A stretch of 64,000 bases of DNA from an uncultured Planctomycetales bacterium (GCA_964467905.1 CAYXSY010000008.1:22-64021), one strand, 5' to 3'; numbered from the stretch's first letter, positions 779-10,982 are shown. Numbers and translations are program-made. Notes: generated from the letters alone by a model not told the origin.

Positions 779-1567
779 ATGAAGAAAATTATTTATTACT
801 TTTCGGCAACCGGAAATTCTTTGGTTGTGGCCAGGGATTTATCTGCTGCTTTGGGAGGATCTGATATCGTCCCGATTACCAAAGCTTTGCGGCAGGATCA
901 GGATAATTCTTATGATGTCATAGGCATAGTATTCCCTGTTTATATGTTTGGCTTACCGCTTATTGTATGTAAGTTTTTAGAAAGTATTAAAGTGAAGAAC
1001 GGCGCTTATGTTTTCTCCGTTGCTACATTAGGCGGTATGCCGGGTAGGGCTCATAGTCTTGTAAAGGAGATTTTAGGCAGGCGTGGTATCAAGCTTAAGG
1101 CCGGTTTCAGTGTGCGTATGCCGGGTAATTATACTCCGTTATATGGGGCAATCAGCGAAGAAAAACAGAATGAGGAGTTTGTCAAAGAGAAGGACCGCGC
1201 GAAAGAGATAGCTTCTTATGTTTTATCCGCCAAAGAAGGCATCATTGAAGAGAAACCGTTTTTGCCTAATTTTCTGATTTACAAGTTGCTATACAAAGGC
1301 GGATCAAAAATGATTCCCTTTTCCGATAAAGATTTTTGGTTTACCGATGCTTGCACTAAATGCGGGATATGCCAGAGAGTTTGTCCGGTTAAGAATATAA
1401 GGCTTGAAGACGGTCATCCTGTGTGGATGCATCATTGCCAGCATTGCATGGCATGCCTGCAGTGGTGCCCGGTTGAGGCAATACAGTATAAGAAAACAAC
1501 TATAGGCAGGAAGCGCTACCGTCATCCTGAGGTGCGCGCAGAAGATATAGCGCAGCAGAGAGAATAA
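779..1567 (+). CDS. Flavodoxin-like domain fused to 2x[4Fe-4S] ferredoxin (EFR1-type)
   Basis: N-terminus MKKIIYYFSATGNSLVVA is flavodoxin-like. Two ferredoxin motifs: CTKCGICQRVCP and CQHCMACLQWCP. GGAG RBS upstream. Confidence 0.7.
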   Translation: MKKIIYYFSATGNSLVVARDLSAALGGSDIVPITKALRQDQDNSYDVIGIVFPVYMFGLPLIVCKFLESIKVKNGAYVFSVATLGGMPGRAHSLVKEILGRRGIKLKAGFSVRMPGNYTPLYGAISEEKQNEEFVKEKDRAKEIASYVLSAKEGIIEEKPFLPNFLIYKLLYKGGSKMIPFSDKDFWFTDACTKCGICQRVCPVKNIRLEDGHPVWMHHCQHCMACLQWCPVEAIQYKKTTIGRKRYRHPEVRAEDIAQQRE

Positions 1568-1598
1568 ACCCGGGAATTTTAGAGAAAGGAGATTTATC

Positions 1599-2183
1599 AT
1601 GAGGAGAATATTCGGATTGGTGTTTTTCGTAGCAGTGGTTTTATTAGCGGCAAATATAGTTTTTGGCGCCGAGATGTCGGCGGATATGATTAGCACAAGC
1701 GCAGGGCAGACTTTCAGGGGTAAGATTTTTATCAGCGGTGACAAGGTCAGGATGGAGAATCCCGAAACAATTAGTATCAGCCGTATGGATAAAAAAGTGG
1801 TTTGGATTTTAATGCCTAAAAACATGACATATATGGAGCAGCCCTTTGATCCTTCGAGCGCAGTAGCTACTTCCAGTAAAGTAAGCGGTGAGATAGAGCG
1901 TAAATTTATAGCCAAAGAAAACATAGACGGACGTCTGACCGATAAGTATCAGGTAGTTTATAATGCAGGAGGGAGAAAAGAAACAATGTTCCAATGGATA
2001 GCCCCTGGCCTGAATATACCGGTCAAGACAGCAGCAGCTGATAACAGCTGGGTAATTGAGTATAAGAATATAAAGACCTCAAAACAGCCTGATTCATTAT
2101 TTGAAGTTCCCGCTGGGTATCAGAAATTCTCTTACCAGATGCCTTCAATGCAGGATGTCTTAGGCGGGATTATCGGAGGTTAA
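1599..2183 (+). CDS. Secreted protein, DUF4412-like
   Basis: Signal peptide MRRIFGLVFFVAVVLLAANIVFGA and AAGGAG RBS. Overall resemblance to DUF4412 periplasmic proteins is from recollection, not searched. Confidence 0.5.
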   Translation: MRRIFGLVFFVAVVLLAANIVFGAEMSADMISTSAGQTFRGKIFISGDKVRMENPETISISRMDKKVVWILMPKNMTYMEQPFDPSSAVATSSKVSGEIERKFIAKENIDGRLTDKYQVVYNAGGRKETMFQWIAPGLNIPVKTAAADNSWVIEYKNIKTSKQPDSLFEVPAGYQKFSYQMPSMQDVLGGIIGG

Positions 2184-2211
2184 GAAGACATAAGGTTACG
2201 TATCTTTCATC

Positions 2212-2239
2212 TTGATTTTAGTAGAAAAAGTGGTAAACT
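2212..2239 (+). promoter_or_regulatory. Candidate sigma70 promoter with extended -10
   Basis: TTGATT (2212-2217), 16-nt spacer, TGgTAAACT (TG 2231-2232, hexamer 2234-2239). Confidence 0.35.
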
Positions 2240-2298
2240 TATCACTGCGTAAGTAATCTCCGAGTTTTAAGGTGGGTCTGGATTAGAAAAATAATGAG

Positions 2299-2349
2299 AA
2301 ACCTTTGCTAGCTGTAAATACTGACAGCCGGCAAAGGTTCCTTTTTTTA
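2299..2349 (+). terminator. Rho-independent terminator or attenuator hairpin
   Basis: ACCTTTGC(ta)GCTGT-loop-ACAGC(cg)GCAAAGGT interrupted stem (2301-2338) followed by a T-run, CTTTTTTT (2341-2348). Confidence 0.6.
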
Positions 2350-2358
2350 TAGAGGCTA

Positions 2359-4203
2359 TTGCATAGAATGTTAAGTTTATTAATACGGCAGTTTATTTTG
2401 TTCGATCCGCTTTCGCTATTTTTTCTCTCCGTAATTATTCTTGTCTGTTTCCCTTCGGCTATCTATTCTGTTGGTTACATGAAGAATGAATATTCTTATT
2501 CTAAAATAAAGTTATCCTGGGTTTTGCTGTTTATTTTCACCCTGTCTATGGCTTTGGTAGTAGCTGTAAGAAACTGCTTAGCTTTTCTTATATTCTGGGA
2601 AATCATGTCTTTAGTATCGTATTTCTTGGTAGTTATTGATGTCCGTCATGAGAAATCAATACAGGCGGGTATGATTTATATAATTATGACGCATATCGGT
2701 ACAGCTTTCTTAACCGCGGCTTTTCTGATAATGTACAAATATGCCGGCTCTTTTGATTTTTTTGTAGTAAGGAATGCTTTGCAAACAATACCACCTACGG
2801 CAAAAAATACATTATTTTTGCTGCTTTTGGCCGGTTTCGGCACTAAGGCCGGGATTGTGCCATTACATATCTGGCTGCCTTATGCTCATCCTCAAGCCCC
2901 GAGCCATATATCGAGTATTATGTCCGGGGTGATGATAAAGACCGCTATTTATGGGATAATCCGCTTCATAATATATATACTTGGTGTTAATGCTCTTTGG
3001 TGGGGGGTATTAGTTTTAGTCCTGGCAGTAATTTCCTGTCTTGTCGGAGTTATCTACGCGCTGATAGAACATGATATCAAGAAGCTTCTCGCATATCATA
3101 GCGTAGAAAACATTGGGATAATATTGCTGGGGGTAGGCCTGGCAATGTTTTTTATCAGTATTAATTTACCTTATTTAGCCATTTTTTCATTAATTGCCGG
3201 CTTATATCACTTAATAAATCATGCTATATTTAAAGGGCTTTTATTTTTATGCGCGGGCAGTGTTTATAAGGCGACAGGGACGCGCGATATCGAAAAGCTG
3301 GGTGGACTAATTAAGAAAATGCCGTATACATCTATATGCTTTTTATTAGGCGCTATGGCAATTTCGGCTTTACCACCGCTTAATGGTTTCGTAAGCGAAT
3401 GGCTGACACTACAAGCGTTTTTCTTGGGAGCATTTAATATATCCGCAGGAGGAAAGATTTTCTTAGGAATATGCGCTTCGATGTTGGCTTTAACCAGCGG
3501 GTTGGCTGCCGCTTGTTTTGTAAAGGCTTTCGGAATCACCTTTTTAGCTCAGCCAAGGAGCCATTACGCCAAAAATGCAAAAGAGGTTACTTTGTCTATG
3601 CGTATAGGGATGTTTTTCTTATCATTCCTGACAATTACGTTTGGTTTAGCCGCGGTCCAAATTATTAAATTACTAGCAAAAGTTTCATCCGCAGTTATGG
3701 GAGTAGATATAAGCGGTATGCGTTTTGCCTTAAACAATTTTACCTTTAAGGCTTATACATCAGGAAGCGCCTCTTTTTCACCTCTTTTGATTGCTTTTTG
3801 GATAGCTATTCTGGTAGTGGTATTTCTTTTTATTCACAGGTTAATAATAAAAACTAAAAGTTCGTTTTCTACGACTTGGGATTGTGGTTATTATAAACTT
3901 ACTGCGCGTAATGAATACACCGCTACCGCTTTCTCAAAGCCATTCAGAATAGCCTTTAGTTTTTTCTTGTTGCCTTATCGCAAGACAGAGAAGATAAGAG
4001 AATCATTCTACCATGTAAAGTCTTTTACTTATGAGACTCATATCACGCAGGTTTTCAGGAAATACATTTATGATCCGGTTATCGTTTTTGTCTTTAAAAC
4101 AGCAAAGTCTATGAGGTTGATTCAGCCGGGAAGTATTAACCTTTATTTATTATATATCTTTGCCAGTCTTTTTTTGTTAATAGTTTTTATGCATTGGTTA
4201 TAA
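2359..4203 (+). CDS. HyfB/HycC-type (NuoL-like) antiporter-like membrane subunit
   Basis: Polytopic 614-aa protein with WLPYAHPQAPSHISSIMSGVMIKTAIYG, typical of NuoL/M/N-HyfB. ATG at 2368 behind AGAGG (2351-2355) may be the real start instead of TTG 2359. Confidence 0.85.
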   Translation: MHRMLSLLIRQFILFDPLSLFFLSVIILVCFPSAIYSVGYMKNEYSYSKIKLSWVLLFIFTLSMALVVAVRNCLAFLIFWEIMSLVSYFLVVIDVRHEKSIQAGMIYIIMTHIGTAFLTAAFLIMYKYAGSFDFFVVRNALQTIPPTAKNTLFLLLLAGFGTKAGIVPLHIWLPYAHPQAPSHISSIMSGVMIKTAIYGIIRFIIYILGVNALWWGVLVLVLAVISCLVGVIYALIEHDIKKLLAYHSVENIGIILLGVGLAMFFISINLPYLAIFSLIAGLYHLINHAIFKGLLFLCAGSVYKATGTRDIEKLGGLIKKMPYTSICFLLGAMAISALPPLNGFVSEWLTLQAFFLGAFNISAGGKIFLGICASMLALTSGLAAACFVKAFGITFLAQPRSHYAKNAKEVTLSMRIGMFFLSFLTITFGLAAVQIIKLLAKVSSAVMGVDISGMRFALNNFTFKAYTSGSASFSPLLIAFWIAILVVVFLFIHRLIIKTKSSFSTTWDCGYYKLTARNEYTATAFSKPFRIAFSFFLLPYRKTEKIRESFYHVKSFTYETHITQVFRKYIYDPVIVFVFKTAKSMRLIQPGSINLYLLYIFASLFLLIVFMHWL

Positions 4204-4204
4204 G

Positions 4205-5128
4205 ATGAGAAATATATTAATAATTATATTGCAGGTATTCGTATTTATCGTGGTTTCTCCATTGCTAAGTGGATTGATATCTAAGATAAAGAACAATATC
4301 AGAATGCGTAAGGGGCAAAGTGTTTTTCAGCCGTATTATAATTTGGTAAAGCTTTTTTCCAAAGATGAGGTAATCTCGTATGATGCTTCTTGGATATTCA
4401 TCGCTGCGCCTGTTATTGTCTTATCAGCCATGCTTAGTGCAGCTTTATTCATACCTGTCTTTATTCTTCCGGCCCCGATGCATCAGATCGGAGATTTCCT
4501 GGCGCTTATATTCATATTTGCTTTAGGGCGTTTTTTTCTTGCGCTTTCTGCTTTGGATACGGGTAGCTCGTTTGGGGGAATGGGGTCTTCCAGAGAGATG
4601 TTTATTTCCAGTCTATCGGAACCCGCATTATGCTTGGTTGTATTCTCTGTATTATTGCAAACCGGCTCTACGGATATTTCGTTATCAAGCGGCGCTTGTA
4701 TGCTTTCGGTTTCAAGCGTTATTACCGCGGTCACCCTATTTCTTATTACGATAGCAGAAACTTCGCGCGTCCCGGTTGATAATCAGGAGACGCATCTGGA
4801 ATTGACTATGGTGCATGAGGCTATGGTTTTGGAATATTCAGGGAGATCATTGGCTTTGTTGGAAATGGCCTCTCATATAAAACAGATGATTATGTTTTTT
4901 CTCATCGCACAAATAATTTTCCCTATAGCTTTACCAGTTTTTGGAGGTTTTGCCGGTATTCTGTATTGGATCTTATGGTATATCGCCAGGATAATCATTA
5001 TAGTGGTTGCCGTAGCTTTGTTAGAAATCTCAATAGCGAAGATGCGTTTATTCAGGGTAGCGGATTTCCTCGGGTTTACATTTGTATTAGGTATTATTGC
5101 CGTGGTGTGCGCGGTATTAGGAGTTTAA
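4205..5128 (+). CDS. HycD/HyfC-type (NuoH-like) membrane subunit
   Basis: ETSRVPVDNQETHLELTMVHEAMVLEYSG matches the NuoH/HycD signature. 1-nt gap to the upstream gene. Confidence 0.85.
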   Translation: MRNILIIILQVFVFIVVSPLLSGLISKIKNNIRMRKGQSVFQPYYNLVKLFSKDEVISYDASWIFIAAPVIVLSAMLSAALFIPVFILPAPMHQIGDFLALIFIFALGRFFLALSALDTGSSFGGMGSSREMFISSLSEPALCLVVFSVLLQTGSTDISLSSGACMLSVSSVITAVTLFLITIAETSRVPVDNQETHLELTMVHEAMVLEYSGRSLALLEMASHIKQMIMFFLIAQIIFPIALPVFGGFAGILYWILWYIARIIIIVVAVALLEISIAKMRLFRVADFLGFTFVLGIIAVVCAVLGV

Positions 5129-5129
5129 T

Positions 5130-5762
5130 ATGGCAGAAGTAATCCTTTGTTTGATTCTGGCTGTAACATATATGATGGTTATTGCCAAGAGGACGCCGGC
5201 CTTGGTGCGTAATTTCCGTTATCAATCTACGCTGATTTTCTTAGTAACATTGGTTTCTGGAATTAGGGGTGGGCACGTTGATTTGTGCATTGTTGCTTTT
5301 CTCATATTGTTCTTAAAGGTTTTTATAATACCATATGTGTTGAATTTAGTAGCCAAGAAAATAAATGTTGACGAGAATCTCGGGCTTTTTGTCAGTCCTC
5401 AACTTTCGTTAATTGTCGCCTTGGCGTTAACTTATTGTTCGGGTGTTTTTGCGCATGCATTAGGGCTAAATTCATTTTACAAAATGGCAGCTATTACTGT
5501 TGCTTTCTCGGTAATTTCCGTAGGAGCATTCCTTATGGTCTCGCGCATGAAAGCTTTTACTCAGCTGATAGGCCTTTTAGTAATGGAGAACGGTATTTTT
5601 ATCTTCGCTTCTTTTTTATCAGCGGGTATGCCATTTTTTGTAGAGTTTGCCATAGCTTTAGATGTATTCATGAGCGTGGTTATTATGGGCATATTTGTCT
5701 ACAGAATCAATAGGCTTTTTACGCATATTGATGTAAATAAGCTGTCTCGTCTAAGAGGGTAG
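5130..5762 (+). CDS. HyfE-like small membrane subunit
   Basis: 210 aa, multi-TM. Size and position between the NuoH-like and NuoN-like genes match hyfE. Confidence 0.7.
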   Translation: MAEVILCLILAVTYMMVIAKRTPALVRNFRYQSTLIFLVTLVSGIRGGHVDLCIVAFLILFLKVFIIPYVLNLVAKKINVDENLGLFVSPQLSLIVALALTYCSGVFAHALGLNSFYKMAAITVAFSVISVGAFLMVSRMKAFTQLIGLLVMENGIFIFASFLSAGMPFFVEFAIALDVFMSVVIMGIFVYRINRLFTHIDVNKLSRLRG

Positions 5763-5783
5763 CTTTTAAAGGAAAAAATACAA

Positions 5784-7241
5784 ATGGAAGTGTTTCTTAT
5801 TATTGGCATTCCGGTTTTTCTTGCGCTGTCAGCTTATTTAATTAAGGATCGAAATCTATATGGCATAGTGAATGCCATCTCCTATTTTATTATATTATGT
5901 CTTAGCGTTGTTGTTTTTAGGAAAGTTATTTCTTCCGGAGAGATAAGTTTATTTGGTGATTCTATTTATCTTGATGCTTTAAGCGCATTTTTTATTTTTG
6001 TTACTGCCTCGGTAGCTTTCGCATCCGCGCTTTATTCAATCGGATATATAAAAAAGGATATTGAAAAAGGCATATTGCCGGAGCATAAAGCGAAATTGTA
6101 TTATTTTCTTTTTAATCTATTCTGTTGCTCTATGTTCCTTGTCGTTACGGTGAATAATCTTGGACTACTTTGGGTTGCTGTTGAGATGACTACACTTGTT
6201 TCAGCGTTTCTTGTAGGTTTGTATAATTCCAAGGGATCAGTTGAGGCAGCATGGAAATATATCATTATATGTTCGGTGGGCATAATCTTTGCGCTTTTAG
6301 GAACAATTCTTTTTTATTACGCTTTTTCTCTTTCGGGAGCGGCAAAGAGCCTGCATTGGTCTGATATCTTGTCCGGAGCGGCAGGTATGGATAAGAATAT
6401 CTTAAAGCTAGCTTTTATTTTTATCTTGGTTGGGTATGGGACTAAGGCCGGCCTTGCTCCTATGCATACCTGGTTGCCTGATGCCCATAGTCAGGCTCCT
6501 GCGCCTATCAGTGCGCTTCTTTCCGGAGTGCTCATTAAAACAGCCATTTATGCAATCTTAAGATTCGGCATTATTGTCGTGAAGGTGGCGGGCTTAACTT
6601 ATTTTTCTCATTTGATGCTGCTTTTAGGGTTAATTTCTTTAGGGCTTTCATGCGCCTTTATACTGGTTCAGAAAGATCTAAAGCGTCTTCTTGCTTATAG
6701 CAGTATTGAACATATTGGCATAATCTCGGTAGCATTTGGTTTGGGTTCTCCGTTAGCCGTAGCCGCAGGCTTGCTGCATATTTTTAACCATGCGGTGACA
6801 AAATCACTTATGTTTTTCTCCGCAGGGAATATTATTTCCGCATACGGTAAGCACAATATGAATGCTATCAGAGGGGTATTAAAAGTTTTGCCGTTTACGG
6901 GGTTCGTGGTATTAATAGGGTGTTTTGCTCTTACGGGATTTCCGCCTTTCTGTATATTTATAAGCGAGATGATGATTCTATTCTCCGCATTTACTAGTGG
7001 CTCATACATAATAGGAATATTGGTATTGTTTTTTTTGGTGGTCATTTTCGGAGCTTTTATTTATCGCTTCGGAGAGATGGTCTTTGGAAATATGCCTAAA
7101 GGGATGAAAATCGTGGGAGAGCCGTTAAGCGGGAAGCTGGCGCTTATATTTTTGTTAGCACAGATTTGTTTATTAGGCATCATATTTTTATTTATCAATA
7201 AGGATTTATTATGCATAATTCAGAGATTCTTACAACAATAA
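5784..7241 (+). CDS. HyfF-type (NuoM/N-like) antiporter-like membrane subunit
   Basis: WLPDAHSQAPAPISALLSGVLIKTAIY motif; polytopic 485 aa. Confidence 0.85.
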   Translation: MEVFLIIGIPVFLALSAYLIKDRNLYGIVNAISYFIILCLSVVVFRKVISSGEISLFGDSIYLDALSAFFIFVTASVAFASALYSIGYIKKDIEKGILPEHKAKLYYFLFNLFCCSMFLVVTVNNLGLLWVAVEMTTLVSAFLVGLYNSKGSVEAAWKYIIICSVGIIFALLGTILFYYAFSLSGAAKSLHWSDILSGAAGMDKNILKLAFIFILVGYGTKAGLAPMHTWLPDAHSQAPAPISALLSGVLIKTAIYAILRFGIIVVKVAGLTYFSHLMLLLGLISLGLSCAFILVQKDLKRLLAYSSIEHIGIISVAFGLGSPLAVAAGLLHIFNHAVTKSLMFFSAGNIISAYGKHNMNAIRGVLKVLPFTGFVVLIGCFALTGFPPFCIFISEMMILFSAFTSGSYIIGILVLFFLVVIFGAFIYRFGEMVFGNMPKGMKIVGEPLSGKLALIFLLAQICLLGIIFLFINKDLLCIIQRFLQQ

Positions 7242-8788
7242 GGGATAATTTCTCAGGTTTTAATGCGCTTGTAGCTTCGCAGGAATATCCGGATGAGCTA
7301 AAGATTAAAGTTTCTCCAGAGAGTTTTAAAGAGACATGTCTTGTTTTACATAAGATTCTTTCTTCTGCGGTGGCGATGTTTTTTGCTTGTGACGCACGCA
7401 AAGAAACAGGGGTATTTGTAGTTAATTGTGTTTTTCTGGATTCAAGGAGAAGCCAATGGATTACCGTGAGTACGGACATACTGCAGGCTAGGCCGTCTTT
7501 TGATTCAATTGCAAAAGATATACATTCGGCAAGTTTGTTTGAGAGACAAATTTGGGAAATGTTTGGTATTGAGCCTAAGGGTAACCCTGATCTAAGGCGC
7601 CTGCATTTACACGATGAAGTTTGGCCGCAAGGCAATTATCCTTTACGTAAGGATTTTAGGGGATTAGGTTCTGTAGATTTGAGTGAATACAGATTCTTCA
7701 GGGTAGAGGGGGATGGGGTATTTGAAGTCCCTGTCGGTCCGGTTCACGCAGGGATAATTGGTCCGGGGCATTTTCGTTTCAGCGTTGCCGGTGAGCCGAT
7801 TATAAATTTAGAGATCCGTCTTGGTTTTACGCATAGAGGAGTAGAGAAGATTTTTGAAGGTAAAACTTATACCGAAGCGATAAAATTATCTGAATGTGTA
7901 GCCGGAGATTCGTGTTTTGCGCACAGCTTAGCATTTATTTTGGCTGCAGAGAAAATTTCTGGCATCAGGGTTACGGACAAGGCTTCCTATACTAGAGCTG
8001 TATTTCTTGAGCTTGAACGTATATATAATCACGTGAATGATATCGGTGGAATTGCTGTTGACGTGGGGTTTAGTTTTCCTGCAGCCTACGCTTCAATTAT
8101 AAAAGAGGCAATTTTACAATTAAATGAAAGAATCTCCGGTAATAGATATATTAAGCATGTTAATATAGCAGGTGGCGTAGTAGTGGATATAGATGAAACC
8201 AAGAGGCAAATAATAAAAGATTCTTTAGAAAAGATAGAATACGATTTCAATGAATTGGTAAAAATATTGTATTCCAGCGTATCTTTTATGGACCGGATAG
8301 ATGGTACCGGAATATTGCGTAAAAAGACTGCCGAGGATATCGGTGTAAGAGGATTGGCGGGGAGAGCTTCTGGTATCCCGGTAGATTTGAGAAGGCTTTT
8401 CCCGGGAGTATATAATAACGTTAAATTCATGATGGCACTAGAGGAGTCTGGTGATGTTTTGGCAAGATTACGGTTAAGGGTTACGGAATTTAAAGAGTCC
8501 TGTCGTTTAATTAAAGAATTTATAAGCAGGATTAAGAAGGATGAGCCATGCGTTGTCTCTGTTGTATCAAAACAGGGCAGTGCGTTAGGCTATGCGGAAG
8601 GCTGGAGGGGGCCGGTTTTGTATTGGCTGCAGACAGATGAAGCAGGGTTAGTTAATAGGTGTAAGGTTGTAGACGCATCTTTTCTTAATTGGCAAGGCTT
8701 ATCGTACGCCGCGTTGGGGAATATAATTCCGGATTTTCCTGTCTGTAATAAAAGTTTTGATTTATCTTATTCGGGGAATGACCTCTAA
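7211..8788 (+). CDS. Fused NuoC-NuoD / HycE-HyfG-like 'large subunit' lacking canonical NiFe cysteines
   Basis: NuoC-like ERQIWEMFGIEPKGNPDLRRLHLHDEVWPQGNYPLRKDF, then VGPVHAGIIGPGHFRF and RLGFTHRGVEKIFEG. Ligand motifs read SECVAGDSCFAHS and SFDLSYSGNDL-stop. Confidence 0.85.
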   Translation: MHNSEILTTIRDNFSGFNALVASQEYPDELKIKVSPESFKETCLVLHKILSSAVAMFFACDARKETGVFVVNCVFLDSRRSQWITVSTDILQARPSFDSIAKDIHSASLFERQIWEMFGIEPKGNPDLRRLHLHDEVWPQGNYPLRKDFRGLGSVDLSEYRFFRVEGDGVFEVPVGPVHAGIIGPGHFRFSVAGEPIINLEIRLGFTHRGVEKIFEGKTYTEAIKLSECVAGDSCFAHSLAFILAAEKISGIRVTDKASYTRAVFLELERIYNHVNDIGGIAVDVGFSFPAAYASIIKEAILQLNERISGNRYIKHVNIAGGVVVDIDETKRQIIKDSLEKIEYDFNELVKILYSSVSFMDRIDGTGILRKKTAEDIGVRGLAGRASGIPVDLRRLFPGVYNNVKFMMALEESGDVLARLRLRVTEFKESCRLIKEFISRIKKDEPCVVSVVSKQGSALGYAEGWRGPVLYWLQTDEAGLVNRCKVVDASFLNWQGLSYAALGNIIPDFPVCNKSFDLSYSGNDL

Positions 8789-8791
8789 ACT

Positions 8792-9319
8792 ATGACGAGC
8801 ATACTTAGAAGCAGATTATTAAAGGGCGTAGTAAGCAGGCATATTGAGCCGCAATTTGCCAAGCAGTTAGAAGATGCTGGCTTAGAATTGAAGATGCTTA
8901 TACAAAAAAGATTTGGCAGGTCTTTATTCATACGTGAGGTAGATACGGGTTCTTGCGGGCTATGTGAATCAGAAATAATTTCTGCTACGAATCCGATATA
9001 TGATTTGCAGAGGTTTGGTATTAATTTTGTGGCATCTCCTCGCCATGCAGATGCGCTTTTGGTTACCGGGGCGCTATCTAAAAATATGGTTTTAGCTTTA
9101 AGGAAAACCTATGAAGCCATGAGCGAGCCTAAATTTGTGATTGCTTGTGGAGATTGCGCTTTGGACGGTAGTCTATTCAAAGGCTCGTATTATGTGGAGT
9201 CGGGGTTAAGTGATATATTGCCTGTAATCTTACATATTCCGGGTTGCCCGCCGTCGCCTATTGTAATTATCCAATATTTGTTATCTTTCCTTAAACATAA
9301 CCGATTAAGTACTGAATGA
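8792..9319 (+). CDS. NuoB/HycG/HyfI-like small subunit ([4Fe-4S])
   Basis: GSCGLCESE ... IACGDCA ... HIPGCPPSP, giving four Cys for the NuoB-type cluster. Confidence 0.85.
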   Translation: MTSILRSRLLKGVVSRHIEPQFAKQLEDAGLELKMLIQKRFGRSLFIREVDTGSCGLCESEIISATNPIYDLQRFGINFVASPRHADALLVTGALSKNMVLALRKTYEAMSEPKFVIACGDCALDGSLFKGSYYVESGLSDILPVILHIPGCPPSPIVIIQYLLSFLKHNRLSTE

Positions 9320-9462
9320 TAGCAGATAAATGAGTTACTATGATGTCATATACCTGCCATAAGTGCTTATCCACATTTATGTTGTTTTTTAGAAGAGATT
9401 AGGTTAAATTAATAGATACTTAAATATTGTATGTAATCGCTAAATCACTAAGCATTAATTCC

Positions 9463-9843
9463 ATGAAACAAAATATCTTTTTTATTATCGGTTTAATAGC
9501 AGCTACTGATTTAATTGATACTATAAGCCAGTTGTTTTTAAAATCGGCAATTAATTCAGTAGACCTGCATATTAATAGTATCGCTAAGGTAATCCGTTTT
9601 ATAATCAGGCTGCTTAAGATCCCAAGGGTATGGTTTTGTTTTGCCTTGAGCGTAGCTTCACTGATTATCTGGTTGTTTGTCCTGTCCAAGACCGACTTAA
9701 ATCTGGCATTTTCTTTGGATAGCATGCGCTATATTATGATTGCTTTAGCATCGATGGTATTTCTTAAAGAAAAGATAAATGCGGCCAGATGGTTTGGAAT
9801 TATCTGTGTAGTTTTAGGCATCTTTTTAGTCGCCTTAGGATAG
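9463..9843 (+). CDS. Small 4-TM EamA/SMR-like transporter
   Basis: Hydrophobic 126-aa protein from ATG 9463 (the track's TTG 9427 is less likely). C-terminal WFGIICVVLGIFLVALG resembles EamA/ArnE-type proteins. Confidence 0.4.
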   Translation: MKQNIFFIIGLIAATDLIDTISQLFLKSAINSVDLHINSIAKVIRFIIRLLKIPRVWFCFALSVASLIIWLFVLSKTDLNLAFSLDSMRYIMIALASMVFLKEKINAARWFGIICVVLGIFLVALG

Positions 9844-9845
9844 AT

Positions 9846-10982
9846 ATGCATAATTTCTCGGTAAAAATAGCAAGAAAGATAGAAGAAATACCCAGATACG
9901 ATTGGGATAGTATTTTTCCTGATGTGCTGGAAAATTACGGTTTTTTCAGAGCGCTTGATAATTCCGGGTTTGATCAGTTTTCGTTTTTCTATATCGTTAT
10001 TTATGATAATAACAAACCTGTTGCAGCAACTTCGTGTTTTATCATGCGTTTTCCTTTTGACATGACGGTCAAGGGTAAGCTAAAAACACTCCTTGGCTTT
10101 ATAAAGAGGATATTCCCGAATATATTAAGCCCGCGCGTGCTTATCTGCGGCTTGCCTATGGGCCAGGGCAGGATAGGGTTGAAAGCAGATTCTCCTGAAT
10201 ATCTGGATGCGGTATGTGAGTCCATGGAGGATATCGCTAAGCAAGAGAAAGTATCCGCCTTTATTTTTAAAGATTTTATCGAGGGCTACGTTGATAAGTT
10301 AAACATTCTTTTGAAGAAGGGTTTTATCAGGATTGAAAGTATCCCTTCTACGGATATGAATATTAATTTCTCTACTTTTGAAGAGTATCTTAACACCTTA
10401 AGCCAGTCTTCAAGGGAGGATTTAAGGAGGAAGCTCAGGAAAACGGAAGCCCAGGTAAAGATTGATTTGGAGGTTACCGATAACCCTTCGGAAAGCGATC
10501 TTGCTAAAATGTATGAACTTTATCTGCAAACCTACAACAAGCAGGATTTAGGATTAGAGAAGCTGCCGCCGGGGTTTTTTAAGTCTGTTTCTGAAAACAT
10601 GCCGGGTGAGGTTAAATATTTCATCTGGAGGATAGAGGATAAGATGGTTTCATTTGCTTTTTGTCTTATCAGGGGCAATTATTTCATAGATTATTATCTT
10701 GGTTTTGATTATTCGATAGCTCATAAGTATAATCTGTACTTTATAAGATTCCGCGACCTCCTGAAGTGGTGCATAGCAAACGGAGTTAAGAAATACGAGA
10801 TGGGTGTGACTACGTATGAGCCCAAGCGCAGGCTCGGCTTTGATTTTGTGCGCCTTTATTTCTATATAAAACACCGCAACAGGCTTATTAATCCTTTCTT
10901 GAAGATAATCGGGCATTTCATAAAACCGGAAAATTTCGATCCTGTTTTCGATACAATGGATAATAACGACGGTTCTTCCTAA
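9846..10982 (+). CDS. FemAB-like / GNAT-fold acyltransferase (DUF482-like)
   Basis: ATG 9846 lies 3 nt after the upstream stop. IEEIPRYDWDSIFP...FFRALDNSGF N-terminus and overall layout resemble the FemAB_like/Acetyltransf_6 family (recollection). Confidence 0.45.
   Translation: MHNFSVKIARKIEEIPRYDWDSIFPDVLENYGFFRALDNSGFDQFSFFYIVIYDNNKPVAATSCFIMRFPFDMTVKGKLKTLLGFIKRIFPNILSPRVLICGLPMGQGRIGLKADSPEYLDAVCESMEDIAKQEKVSAFIFKDFIEGYVDKLNILLKKGFIRIESIPSTDMNINFSTFEEYLNTLSQSSREDLRRKLRKTEAQVKIDLEVTDNPSESDLAKMYELYLQTYNKQDLGLEKLPPGFFKSVSENMPGEVKYFIWRIEDKMVSFAFCLIRGNYFIDYYLGFDYSIAHKYNLYFIRFRDLLKWCIANGVKKYEMGVTTYEPKRRLGFDFVRLYFYIKHRNRLINPFLKIIGHFIKPENFDPVFDTMDNNDGSS

Follow-up and report, generated by a model that had tools for sequence, protein, structure and literature searches.

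A stripped-down ehrABCDLS operon and the question of what an energy-converting-hydrogenase-related complex does

What does a membrane complex built like an energy-converting hydrogenase do when the residues that would hold its metal are gone? The question is raised by six genes at 2359–9319 on the (+) strand of a 64,000-nt stretch of DNA from an uncultured Planctomycetales bacterium (GCA_964467905.1, CAYXSY010000008.1:22-64021; the whole stretch is hereafter the window). We find that they are almost certainly an ehrABCDLS operon, for an energy-converting-hydrogenase-related (Ehr) complex, and not a hydrogenase operon. Their product is a complex-I-superfamily machine with a membrane arm of EhrA, EhrB, EhrC and EhrD and a minimal peripheral arm of EhrL and EhrS, a further, somewhat stripped-down member of the known Ehr class and not a new kind of system. 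The class has been recognised for around 20 years, and the papers cited here assign it no function; in the searchable literature to 2026 we found no functional study of Ehr, with searching blurred by name clashes with 'EHR' and 'Ehrlichia'. We tentatively propose below that the complex may be a redox-coupled ion-translocating module, and hold the whole explanation, identity and mechanism together, at about even odds, a compromise between its two parts.

The six open reading frames (ORFs) are co-directional and close-packed, with intergenic gaps of 1–21 nt and a single 31-nt overlap that is also seen in relatives; they coincide exactly with the genes of an initial annotation made from the sequence alone, and Pfam and NCBIfam place them in the families named there. 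The first gene, ehrA (2359–4203, 614 aa), encodes an antiporter-like subunit of the HyfB/HycC/NuoL type with a fused ND3-like C-terminal loop (Pfam, NCBIfam). It is followed by ehrB (4205–5128, 307 aa) for a NuoH/HycD-like membrane anchor at the peripheral-arm interface (PF00146, NADHdh), ehrC (5130–5762, 210 aa) for a small membrane subunit of the HyfE type whose C-terminal half is NuoK-like (NCBIfam HyfE, 1.1e-19; Pfam Oxidored_q2, weak) and ehrD (5784–7241, 485 aa) for a second, HyfF/NuoN-like antiporter-like subunit (NCBIfam HyfF, 4.3e-143). Both EhrA and EhrD contain Proton_antipo_M, and their top NCBIfam models are HyfB and HyfF, respectively. The peripheral arm is encoded by ehrL (7211–8788, 525 aa), a NuoC + NuoD/HycE-like fusion of Complex1_30kDa and Complex1_49kDa domains (Pfam) without [NiFe] ligands, and by ehrS (8792–9319, 175 aa), a short NuoB-like (Oxidored_q6) small subunit without an N-terminal ferredoxin domain. 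Among solved structures, EhrL, EhrA and EhrB match best the Escherichia coli formate hydrogenlyase subunits HycE (1.8e-60, PDB 7Z0S chain E), HycC (1.3e-77, 7Z0S_C) and HycD (2.4e-37, 7Z0S_D), respectively; EhrB and HycD align from end to end, and EhrB retains both the EYSG motif and the acidic residues of the loop; EhrS matches Pyrococcus furiosus MbhJ best and Escherichia coli HycG second. The resulting order, NuoL-like, NuoH-like, HyfE-like, NuoN-like, large and small subunit, is that of ehrABCDLS, a class defined by this six-gene layout together with loss of the CxxC motifs (PMC3569383, PMC6688271, PMC10284858, PMC6349859).

The loss is plain in EhrL, whose ligand columns we took from a HMMER alignment to E. 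coli HycE (7Z0S chain E). At the former N-terminal motif, SECVAGDSCFAHS (7889–7927, +), HycE RVCGICGFAHS (C241, C244) aligns with CVAGDSCFAHS, which puts A231 and S234 on the ligand columns; at the former C-terminal motif, SFDLSYSGNDL-stop (8753–8788, +), HycE DPCYSCTD (C531, C534) aligns with DLSYSGND, which puts S519 and G522 there. These are the residues and nucleotide ranges that the initial annotation had proposed, and the four Cys ligands of a group 4 [NiFe] hydrogenase (CxxC in both L1 and L2) are missing from the protein. Within the latter motif, D517 is the counterpart of the HycE canopy residue D529. In an alignment to Thermus thermophilus Nqo4, the quinone ligands Tyr87 and His38 fall on G232 and I183. 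The pocket is thus not a [NiFe] site, nor does it amount to the canonical quinone site of complex I: as predicted from these alignments, a canonical [NiFe] centre cannot be bound, and the quinone-ligating Tyr and His of complex I are absent. The annotation had further pointed to the lack of a C-terminal extension for endopeptidase maturation. EhrL does stop two residues past the C-terminal motif, but Cys-containing relatives also end at that motif, so the missing extension is not diagnostic.

Is the remodelled pocket maintained, or is it drifting? EhrL has more than 100 relatives at 65–89% identity, nearly all of exactly 525 aa, and those with a source name are from metagenome-assembled genomes (MAGs) of Candidatus Omnitrophota, the group to which the analysis ascribed the operon itself; the relatives of EhrS follow the same pattern, again with more than 100 members. 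Across 116 full-length EhrL orthologues in this identity range, almost all of 524–528 aa, the pocket columns E228 (116/116), G232 and D233 (115/116 each) are near-invariant, as are S519, Y520 and D524 (116/116 each) and G522 (115/116), a pattern of strong purifying selection on the motif. None of the four [NiFe] Cys columns holds Cys in these proteins, save column 231 in 14 of them; residues there are otherwise Ser (92) or Ala (8), and column 234 holds Ser (98), Ala (14) or Thr (3). Across the wider family, the Ehr-specific residues are S231, D233, S519 and G522, where [NiFe] forms have C, A/V, C and C.

Such conservation refutes the idea that the operon is a decaying relic, a former hydrogenase operon nearing pseudogenisation and functionless, as might be thought from the loss of the catalytic ligands, the ferredoxin domain and the EhrA N-terminus. 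None of the six ORFs is disrupted, more than 100 Omnitrophota orthologues at 65–89% identity share the architecture and its near-invariant motifs, and the Ehr family occurs in more than 590 species. Bit scores against Omnitrophota orthologues are ~0.68–0.75 of the self-score, alike in all six subunits, so that no subunit, those of the peripheral arm included, is decaying. We regard this reading as effectively excluded, with next to no probability left to it.

The same columns bear on whether EhrL could be a true hydrogenase after all, its metal held by non-canonical residues such as Cys229/Cys235 plus Cys484/Cys512. Positions 229 and 235 of the window protein are indeed Cys, the Omnitrophota clade conserves Cys484 and Cys512 (113 and 115 of 116), and Cys stands at column 231 in the 14 orthologues mentioned. 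However, column 235 is Cys in only 6 of 116 orthologues and Ser (79) or Ala (19) in 98; column 229, Cys in 103, is Arg in 12; S519 is found in all 116 and G522 in 115; beyond the clade, Cys484 and Cys512 vary; the β1–β2 loop Glu is missing; and no hyp gene was found among the scanned window ORFs. We therefore consider a non-canonical hydrogenase very improbable, and effectively excluded. With it goes the shifted C-x5-C pair (Cys229/Cys235) that the annotation had offered as a hint of a different metal or redox site: given how rarely Cys235 occurs, the pair is an idiosyncrasy of one sequence. Cys229, for its part, is a clade-specific replacement of the ancestral Arg.

The gene content of the window agrees. 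Fifty window ORFs were scanned with Pfam (42 of the 52 ORFs of at least 90 aa outside the operon), leaving out eight short ORFs of 125–297 aa, one of them, at 125 aa, of HypA size. As the initial annotation had it for the operon, no hyp, formate dehydrogenase (FDH) or NuoI/HycF-type gene was found in the operon or among the 50, the eight short ORFs being unscanned; nor was a NuoEF gene found among the 50. Hyp genes elsewhere in a genome would be uninformative, because some related Omnitrophota genomes have a separate Ech-like [NiFe] hydrogenase, in one case (locus L005) 8 kb from the ehr operon (L005:18643-21578).

How widely is this architecture held? An exhaustive, profile-free search of 1.8 billion representatives yielded 856 proteins with E <= 1e-30. 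In most of the top 150 the two motifs read E-[RSC]-x-S-G-D-x-x-[FV]-[AG]-H and N-K-S-F-N-L-S-Y-[SA]-G-N-D-L-stop; in a minority they read E-R-x-C-G-x-C and E-L-C-Y-x-C-x-D-R-stop. A scan of one genome per GTDB species gave more than 590 confirmed matches in both domains of life, from which 80 loci were kept; the family comparisons rest on 85 loci (88 large subunits), designated here by L numbers. Bacterial holders include Omnitrophota, Saganbacteria, Nitrospirota, Acidobacteriota, Methylomirabilota/Rokubacteria, Patescibacteria, Chloroflexota, Bacillota and Actinomycetota, and archaeal holders ammonia-oxidising Thaumarchaeota, Methanomassiliicoccales and Methanosarcina. The six genes stand together in nearly every sufficiently long locus, in the order A-B-C-D-L-S or S-A-B-C-D-L, with A or D duplicated in some. 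The Cys-less signature (E-x-x-S/A-G-D ... L-S-Y-S-G-N-D-L-stop) is present in ~75 of the 85 loci, and about nine have all four Cys in the same six-gene layout.

These results fit the published record of the class, first noted in Geobacter (GSU0739-45; PMC7894505), named ehrABCDLS in Methylacidiphilum (PMC6688271) and reported from ammonia-oxidising archaea (AOA; PMC10432482), Methanomassiliicoccales (PMC6147122) and Margulisbacteria/Saganbacteria (PMC6349859). Our locus L012 is itself a comammox Nitrospira MAG of an earlier study that applied the name Ehr to these complexes (QZM_B4_2_Bin429; PMC10284858), and it carries the Ehr signature. In a midpoint-rooted neighbour-joining tree, which has an arbitrary root and no support values and was not used for the direction of cofactor loss, EhrL groups with S-G-D-type proteins of Nitrospira and AOA and with Cys-containing relatives. 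That the nearest Cys-containing relatives share the layout agrees with the description of comammox Nitrospira Ehr as 'phylogenetically close to group 4f' (PMC10284858), and Desulfotomaculum ruminis EhrL keeps the four Cys (PMC3569383). Layout and family-wide signature concur with the annotation's placement of the complex as an Ehr-like, non-hydrogenase relative of group 4 [NiFe] enzymes, and the Cys-containing neighbours are compatible with it. Within the family, two Nitrospirota contigs carry tandem complete ehrABCDLS pairs (L026:4793-19862, L063:115-13988) whose copies differ in motif, S-G-T-S ... S-G-T-D-M versus S-G-D-T ... Q-S-Y-S-G-N-D-L.

If EhrL lacks a metal site, where could electrons enter or leave? 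Alignment to MbhJ and HycG shows the cluster ligands C55, C58, C122 and C152 in EhrS, and all four are invariant in 120 of 120 EhrS orthologues, in keeping with the annotation's claim that the NuoB-like subunit retains its cluster cysteines; an extra cysteine, C119, is present in 82 of the 120. From these residues, EhrS is predicted to keep one N2-equivalent [4Fe-4S] cluster.

Across the loci, EhrS takes three forms: long and Cys-rich, short with ligands, and short and ligand-free. The long form, found in ~22 Ehr loci, has an N-terminal extension of 100–220 residues with 4–10 Cys, in several cases with two CxxCxxCxxxC motifs. Pfam resolves a fusion of a Fer4 dicluster with Oxidored_q6 in Thermincola, a [NiFe]-type locus (L029:11533-12267), and in two Ehr-type loci (L017:11543-12400 and L049:11518-12306), a one-cluster remnant in L045 and none detectable in L024. 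The short ligand-bearing form (~170 aa, four N2-type ligands) occurs in ~40 loci, including the window, all Omnitrophota-clade loci, many from Nitrospirota and those of the Rokubacteria. In nine loci (L018, L020, L039, L043, L047, L053, L072, L078 and L080) the ligand columns hold Asp, Thr, Ser, Glu, Gly or Asn; these proteins still match Oxidored_q6, and most have a single Cys in all. One lies on a complete Methanosarcina chromosome (NZ_CP195119, L078:11707-12222), and CPR/Patescibacteria MAGs are also represented. The cluster-free loci keep all six genes, the S-G-D / L-S-Y-S-G motif, the proton path and the antiporter residues, and fall into at least two separate clades of a rough neighbour-joining tree, a SABCDL group resembling the candidate phyla radiation (CPR) and Methanosarcina.

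The NuoI/HycF equivalent in the Ehr family is thus a domain fused to the EhrS N-terminus, which the window clade lacks. The two-cluster NuoI subunit and NuoEFG of complex I are absent from the operon and the 50 window ORFs, and EhrS has no Fer4 domain. The initial annotation had made a distinguishing feature of the missing NuoI-type subunit; the absence stands for the operon and scanned ORFs, but relatives have no separate gene either and carry a fused ferredoxin domain instead. Because such fusions include true [NiFe] forms, electrons would have entered by the EhrS face in the ancestral design.

The proton path and the membrane arm are well kept. Residue roles, among them those of HycE H188 and of E193 as the β1–β2 loop proton donor to the active site, come from the formate hydrogenlyase (FHL) structure paper (PMC9474812) and were transferred through the EhrL–HycE alignment, in which H188 corresponds to H179, E193 to G184, S283/H284 to N273/H274, R395 to R385, E437 to E426, R478 to R466 and D529 to D517. 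Every group of the 88 large subunits, the [NiFe] forms included, keeps H179, H274, R385, E426 and R466 without exception or almost so; in the cluster-free group, H274 and R385 are each kept in 7 of 9. The departure is in the β1–β2 loop itself, GPVHAGIIGPGHFRF (7736–7780, +), which retains H179 and has G184 in place of the proton-donor Glu of group 4 [NiFe] enzymes. Column 184 is Gly in 115 of 116 clade orthologues and Glu in 76 of 76 loci outside the Omnitrophota clade, whatever their cofactor content.

The membrane arm retains the Mrp-type TM5 Glu, TM7 Lys, TM8 Lys and TM12 Glu/Lys (TM, transmembrane helix) in both antiporter-like subunits. In EhrA, E81, K163, K194 and E347 are conserved in 65–70 of 70 loci; the window EhrD has E134, K221, K252 and E395, and E134, K221 and E395 are conserved too (with the EhrA residues, in 65–80 of 70–80 sequences), cluster-free loci included throughout. 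The ND3-like loop at the EhrA end reads T-W-D-C509-G (T-W-x-C509-G in the family), with C509 in 67 of 70. In FHL, the HycC residue Cys537 packs on HycD Phe122 and HycE His188 (PMC9474812), and counterparts of both partners are present in EhrB and EhrL. With the loop, these counterparts and the antiporter residues kept, the coupling interface looks intact as judged from the alignments. EhrA is nevertheless short: it aligns from HycC residue 70 on and lacks ~65 N-terminal residues, about two TM helices, relative to HycC and the EhrA of other phyla, so that the TM5 Glu lies at ~78 in the clade and at ~145 elsewhere. No hidden N-terminal exon was found upstream of 2359, where all three frames contain stops, and the short N-terminus is therefore not a frameshift; the start is likely the ATG at 2368 rather than the TTG at 2359.

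From these elements, we arrive at a tentative mechanism, one that we consider the likeliest of the readings and put somewhat short of probable: the complex may be a redox-coupled ion-translocating module in which a soluble low-potential carrier, acting through the single cluster, cycles or gates the machine. A ferredoxin- or flavodoxin-type carrier would dock on EhrS/EhrL where relatives bear the fused 2x[4Fe-4S] domain; since that domain is lost here, the carrier would need to dock on EhrS directly. It would reduce the single EhrS cluster, and the change of charge at the cluster, together with the remodelled polar pocket (S/A231-G-D233-S234, S519, G522), would be relayed via the interface loops to EhrB/EhrC. 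H+ or Na+ movement through EhrA and EhrD would thereby be driven or gated, adding to the ion-motive force, and the electron sink might be a quinone of the membrane, or else some small molecule housed in the enlarged pocket. Two loci have suggestive surroundings, an F-type ATP synthase operon following ehr in L088 (directly after it, L088:10227-16742) and genes for Rex and a HydABC-type bifurcating [FeFe]-hydrogenase just downstream in L003 (L003:12205-21578).

Several points weigh against this proposal. A lone one-electron cluster is unusual as the sole redox centre of such a machine. No electron acceptor can be named, with Tyr87 and His38 replaced by G232 and I183. The Omnitrophota clade alone lacks the β1–β2 loop Glu, and G184 in its place argues against proton-consuming catalysis in the pocket. 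The nine cluster-free loci keep the pocket, and its role therefore cannot be electron acceptance in every lineage. Neither the ±4-kb surroundings of the 85 loci nor the flanks of the seven Omnitrophota-clade loci hold a conserved redox partner gene. Finally, the support for the mechanism comes from sequence comparison and from nothing experimental.

Some of these points lead to the main rival reading, in which Ehr works as an Mrp-like cation/proton antiporter that needs no redox chemistry or is at most gated by it, EhrL and EhrS serve as a structural or regulatory cap with the former pocket in the proton path, and the clade keeps its cluster for folding or as a redox sensor and not for catalysis. 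We take this seriously and still think it doubtful. It would account for cluster-free EhrS in 9 of 85 loci from at least two clades with six genes, pocket motif and antiporter residues intact, for the lack of conserved partner genes, and for the fact that this clade has lost the ferredoxin domain, the β1–β2 Glu and Arg229; Mrp subunits A and D are strong matches for EhrA and EhrD, and pH homeostasis has been proposed as the task of ehrABCDLS in Methylacidiphilum (PMC6688271). By contrast, the four cluster cysteines are invariant in all 120 clade orthologues, the 4–10-Cys EhrS extension in ~22 Ehr loci resembles an electron wire rather than a sensor, and a soluble arm of ~700 residues with a near-invariant pocket would be a costly addition that Mrp systems manage without.

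More speculatively still, and in our estimate rather unlikely, Ehr complexes could be complex-I-type coupling machines with no need of redox chemistry, the S-G-D / S-Y-S-G pocket acting as a proton-loading or ligand-sensing site that gates the antiporter arm. Fe–S centres would then have been lost stepwise, from [NiFe] + ferredoxin domain + N2-like cluster to domain + cluster, to cluster alone, to none. The window would represent the cluster-only, near-terminal stage and Methanosarcina and CPR-like lineages the last, and the single cluster might be a redox gate tying ion transport to the ferredoxin pool.

Could the electrons instead come from a partner encoded elsewhere? Were the complex a partner-dependent oxidoreductase, an electron-input module in trans (FDH plus NuoEF-like, or of the HydABC/EFR1 type) would feed the cluster. 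Precedents are the FDH–Ehr hypothesis for Margulisbacteria and Saganbacteria (PMC6349859) and the greater abundance of Geobacter Ehr subunits on formate (PMC7894505); the hydrogenase genes beside L003 and a gene upstream of our operon are of the right kind. The latter (779–1567, +; NCBIfam 263 bits against a cut-off of 75, also Pfam) encodes an EFR1-family 'ferrodoxin', a flavodoxin-like domain with 2x[4Fe-4S], and lies 0.8 kb upstream of ehrA with a DUF4412 gene and a strong hairpin in between. Its product is a possible candidate for the soluble carrier. The association is not conserved, however, being absent from the flanks of L001, L003, L005, L087 and L088. No FDH or NuoEF gene is among the 50 scanned window ORFs (eight short ORFs unscanned), every Omnitrophota-clade locus examined has different flanks, with no conserved neighbour in the seven, and when the ORFs within ±4 kb of the cluster in the 85 loci were clustered all-versus-all, neither a conserved seventh gene nor a redox partner emerged: the groups were generic or spurious, and the sole recurring families were ABC ATPases and sensor proteins of a generic kind. 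For want of a conserved neighbour, we rate a partner in trans as improbable and keep to the docking of a soluble carrier as our tentative preference.

The region before ehrA contains the hairpin just mentioned, a 19-nt inverted repeat (2297–2315/2324–2342) followed by a U-run (2297–2350, +), directly 5′ of GAGG and the ehrA start. Its arms are 84% complementary around an 8-nt loop, and the closest relative, L086, retains it with the two sides of the internal mismatch exchanged. The hairpin may terminate the 1599–2183 gene or act as an attenuator in the ehr leader. Rfam gave no match on the ehrA leader, for which the fold z-score is only −1.7; promoter and terminator consensus scans of 1500–10200 gave no excess over shuffles and did not list the hairpin; and the Rex operator TTGTGAAN4TTCACAA has 2 matches against 4 expected by chance, none upstream of ehrA.

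Downstream of ehrS lies a gene for a small membrane protein of the DMT superfamily (9427–9843), as in two other loci (L001:12106-12459, L002:8904-9257); it is EamA/ArnE-F-like in the window and DMT_6 in the other two. A FemAB-like acyltransferase gene comes next in the window (9789–10982). In L087, the ehr flank includes pyruvate kinase. The rest of the window holds phosphate transport, two-component system and envelope polysaccharide genes. Two unusual response-regulator fusions adjoin each other, of a receiver with CofD (2-phospho-L-lactate transferase family; 26077–27393) and with an NAD-dependent epimerase/dehydratase (27390–28775). At 232–750, a 172-aa protein has a weak Cas4-like match (PD-(D/E)xK with a C-terminal Cys cluster; NCBIfam 26 bits, below cut-off), and no CRISPR context was seen in the examined part of the window. 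The (+) strand carries 61 of the 62 non-overlapping ORFs of at least 90 aa, and all 2-kb bins (1–64000) have a positive GC skew: the whole window is on one replichore, with near-total co-orientation.

The operon adds an Omnitrophota-clade lineage to the Ehr class, and its interest lies in the class-level question more than in a single operon. Ehr complexes occupy the ground between respiratory complex I, the energy-converting hydrogenases and the Mrp antiporters; nitrifiers, methanogens, Geobacter and many candidate phyla are among the hundreds of species that have them. Fused ferredoxin domains, cluster-free Methanosarcina forms and the loss of the loop Glu in one clade offer handles on 'redox pump' versus 'antiporter'. 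There is also a practical side. Clade proteins are labelled 'NADH-quinone oxidoreductase subunit C', 'Ni,Fe-hydrogenase III large subunit' or 'hydrogenase 3 large subunit' in databases, and a survey of Omnitrophota scored 'complex I' by PF00346 (PMC10066038); a census of that kind would probably count EhrL as complex I. Such miscounting would distort metabolic reconstructions, which should class an Ehr operon as neither complex I nor hydrogenase.

Among known systems, the closest are published Ehr complexes. The prototype, Geobacter sulfurreducens GSU0739-0745, has the same six-subunit order and a large subunit without CxxC, a likeness drawn from its published layout, with the Geobacter protein sequences outside the comparison; the S-G-D / L-S-Y-S-G-N-D-L signature of the window EhrL is common to the Nitrospira and AOA loci. 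Relative to other Ehr, the Omnitrophota clade has G184 for the β1–β2 Glu, Cys229 for Arg and Asp517 for Asn in EhrL, an EhrA ~65 residues shorter at its N-terminus, and a short EhrS without the ferredoxin domain. Cys-containing, group 4f-like complexes (D. ruminis Desru_3260-3265; Thermincola L029, L067, L068, L052 and L081) share the six-gene layout, 37–41% identity in the large subunit, and the same β1–β2 loop, canopy and proton-path residues, and likewise lack an endopeptidase extension. They keep ERxCGxC and ELCYxCxDR, most with a Fer4 dicluster domain on the small subunit, whereas in the window complex the ligand columns read A/S/S/G, an Asp stands between the first two, and the ferredoxin domain is absent.

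Further afield, E. coli Hyc (7Z0S) and Hyf (FHL-2) resemble the window complex in the NuoC–NuoD fusion and the ND3-like loop on the antiporter-like subunit, and Hyf also in its HyfE and HyfF homologues. Unlike Hyc, the window complex has no [NiFe] site and no HycE-type C-terminal extension, HycB, HycF, FdhF, HycI and hyp genes are not among the window ORFs scanned, and EhrA has the TM7 Lys that HycC lacks. P. furiosus membrane-bound hydrogenase (MBH; 6CFW) and membrane-bound sulfane reductase (MBS/Mbx; 6U8Y) likewise place a group-4-type peripheral module on an Mrp-like membrane arm, and MBS offers a precedent, being a relative with a large subunit that has given up H2 production; both differ by a two-cluster subunit of the NuoI type and a much larger set of Mrp-type subunits, and MBH by its full [NiFe] site. 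With complex I the window complex shares homologous subunits, an N2-equivalent cluster, a NuoD-like subunit without [NiFe] ligands, and conserved antiporter Lys/Glu residues and interface loops, but it has no Tyr87/His38 equivalents, no tandem-Cys N2 motif, no NuoI, NuoE, NuoF or NuoG, and only two antiporter-like subunits. Mrp antiporters (7QRU, 6Z16, 7D3U) have MrpA and MrpD homologous to EhrA and EhrD, with the same charged-residue pattern. They have no NuoH-, NuoB- or NuoCD-like subunits and no Fe–S cluster, and their seven-subunit MrpA–G composition without a redox arm is not that of the window complex, in which Pfam and NCBIfam detect no MrpB, MrpE, MrpF or MrpG and the membrane arm is joined to EhrL and EhrS.

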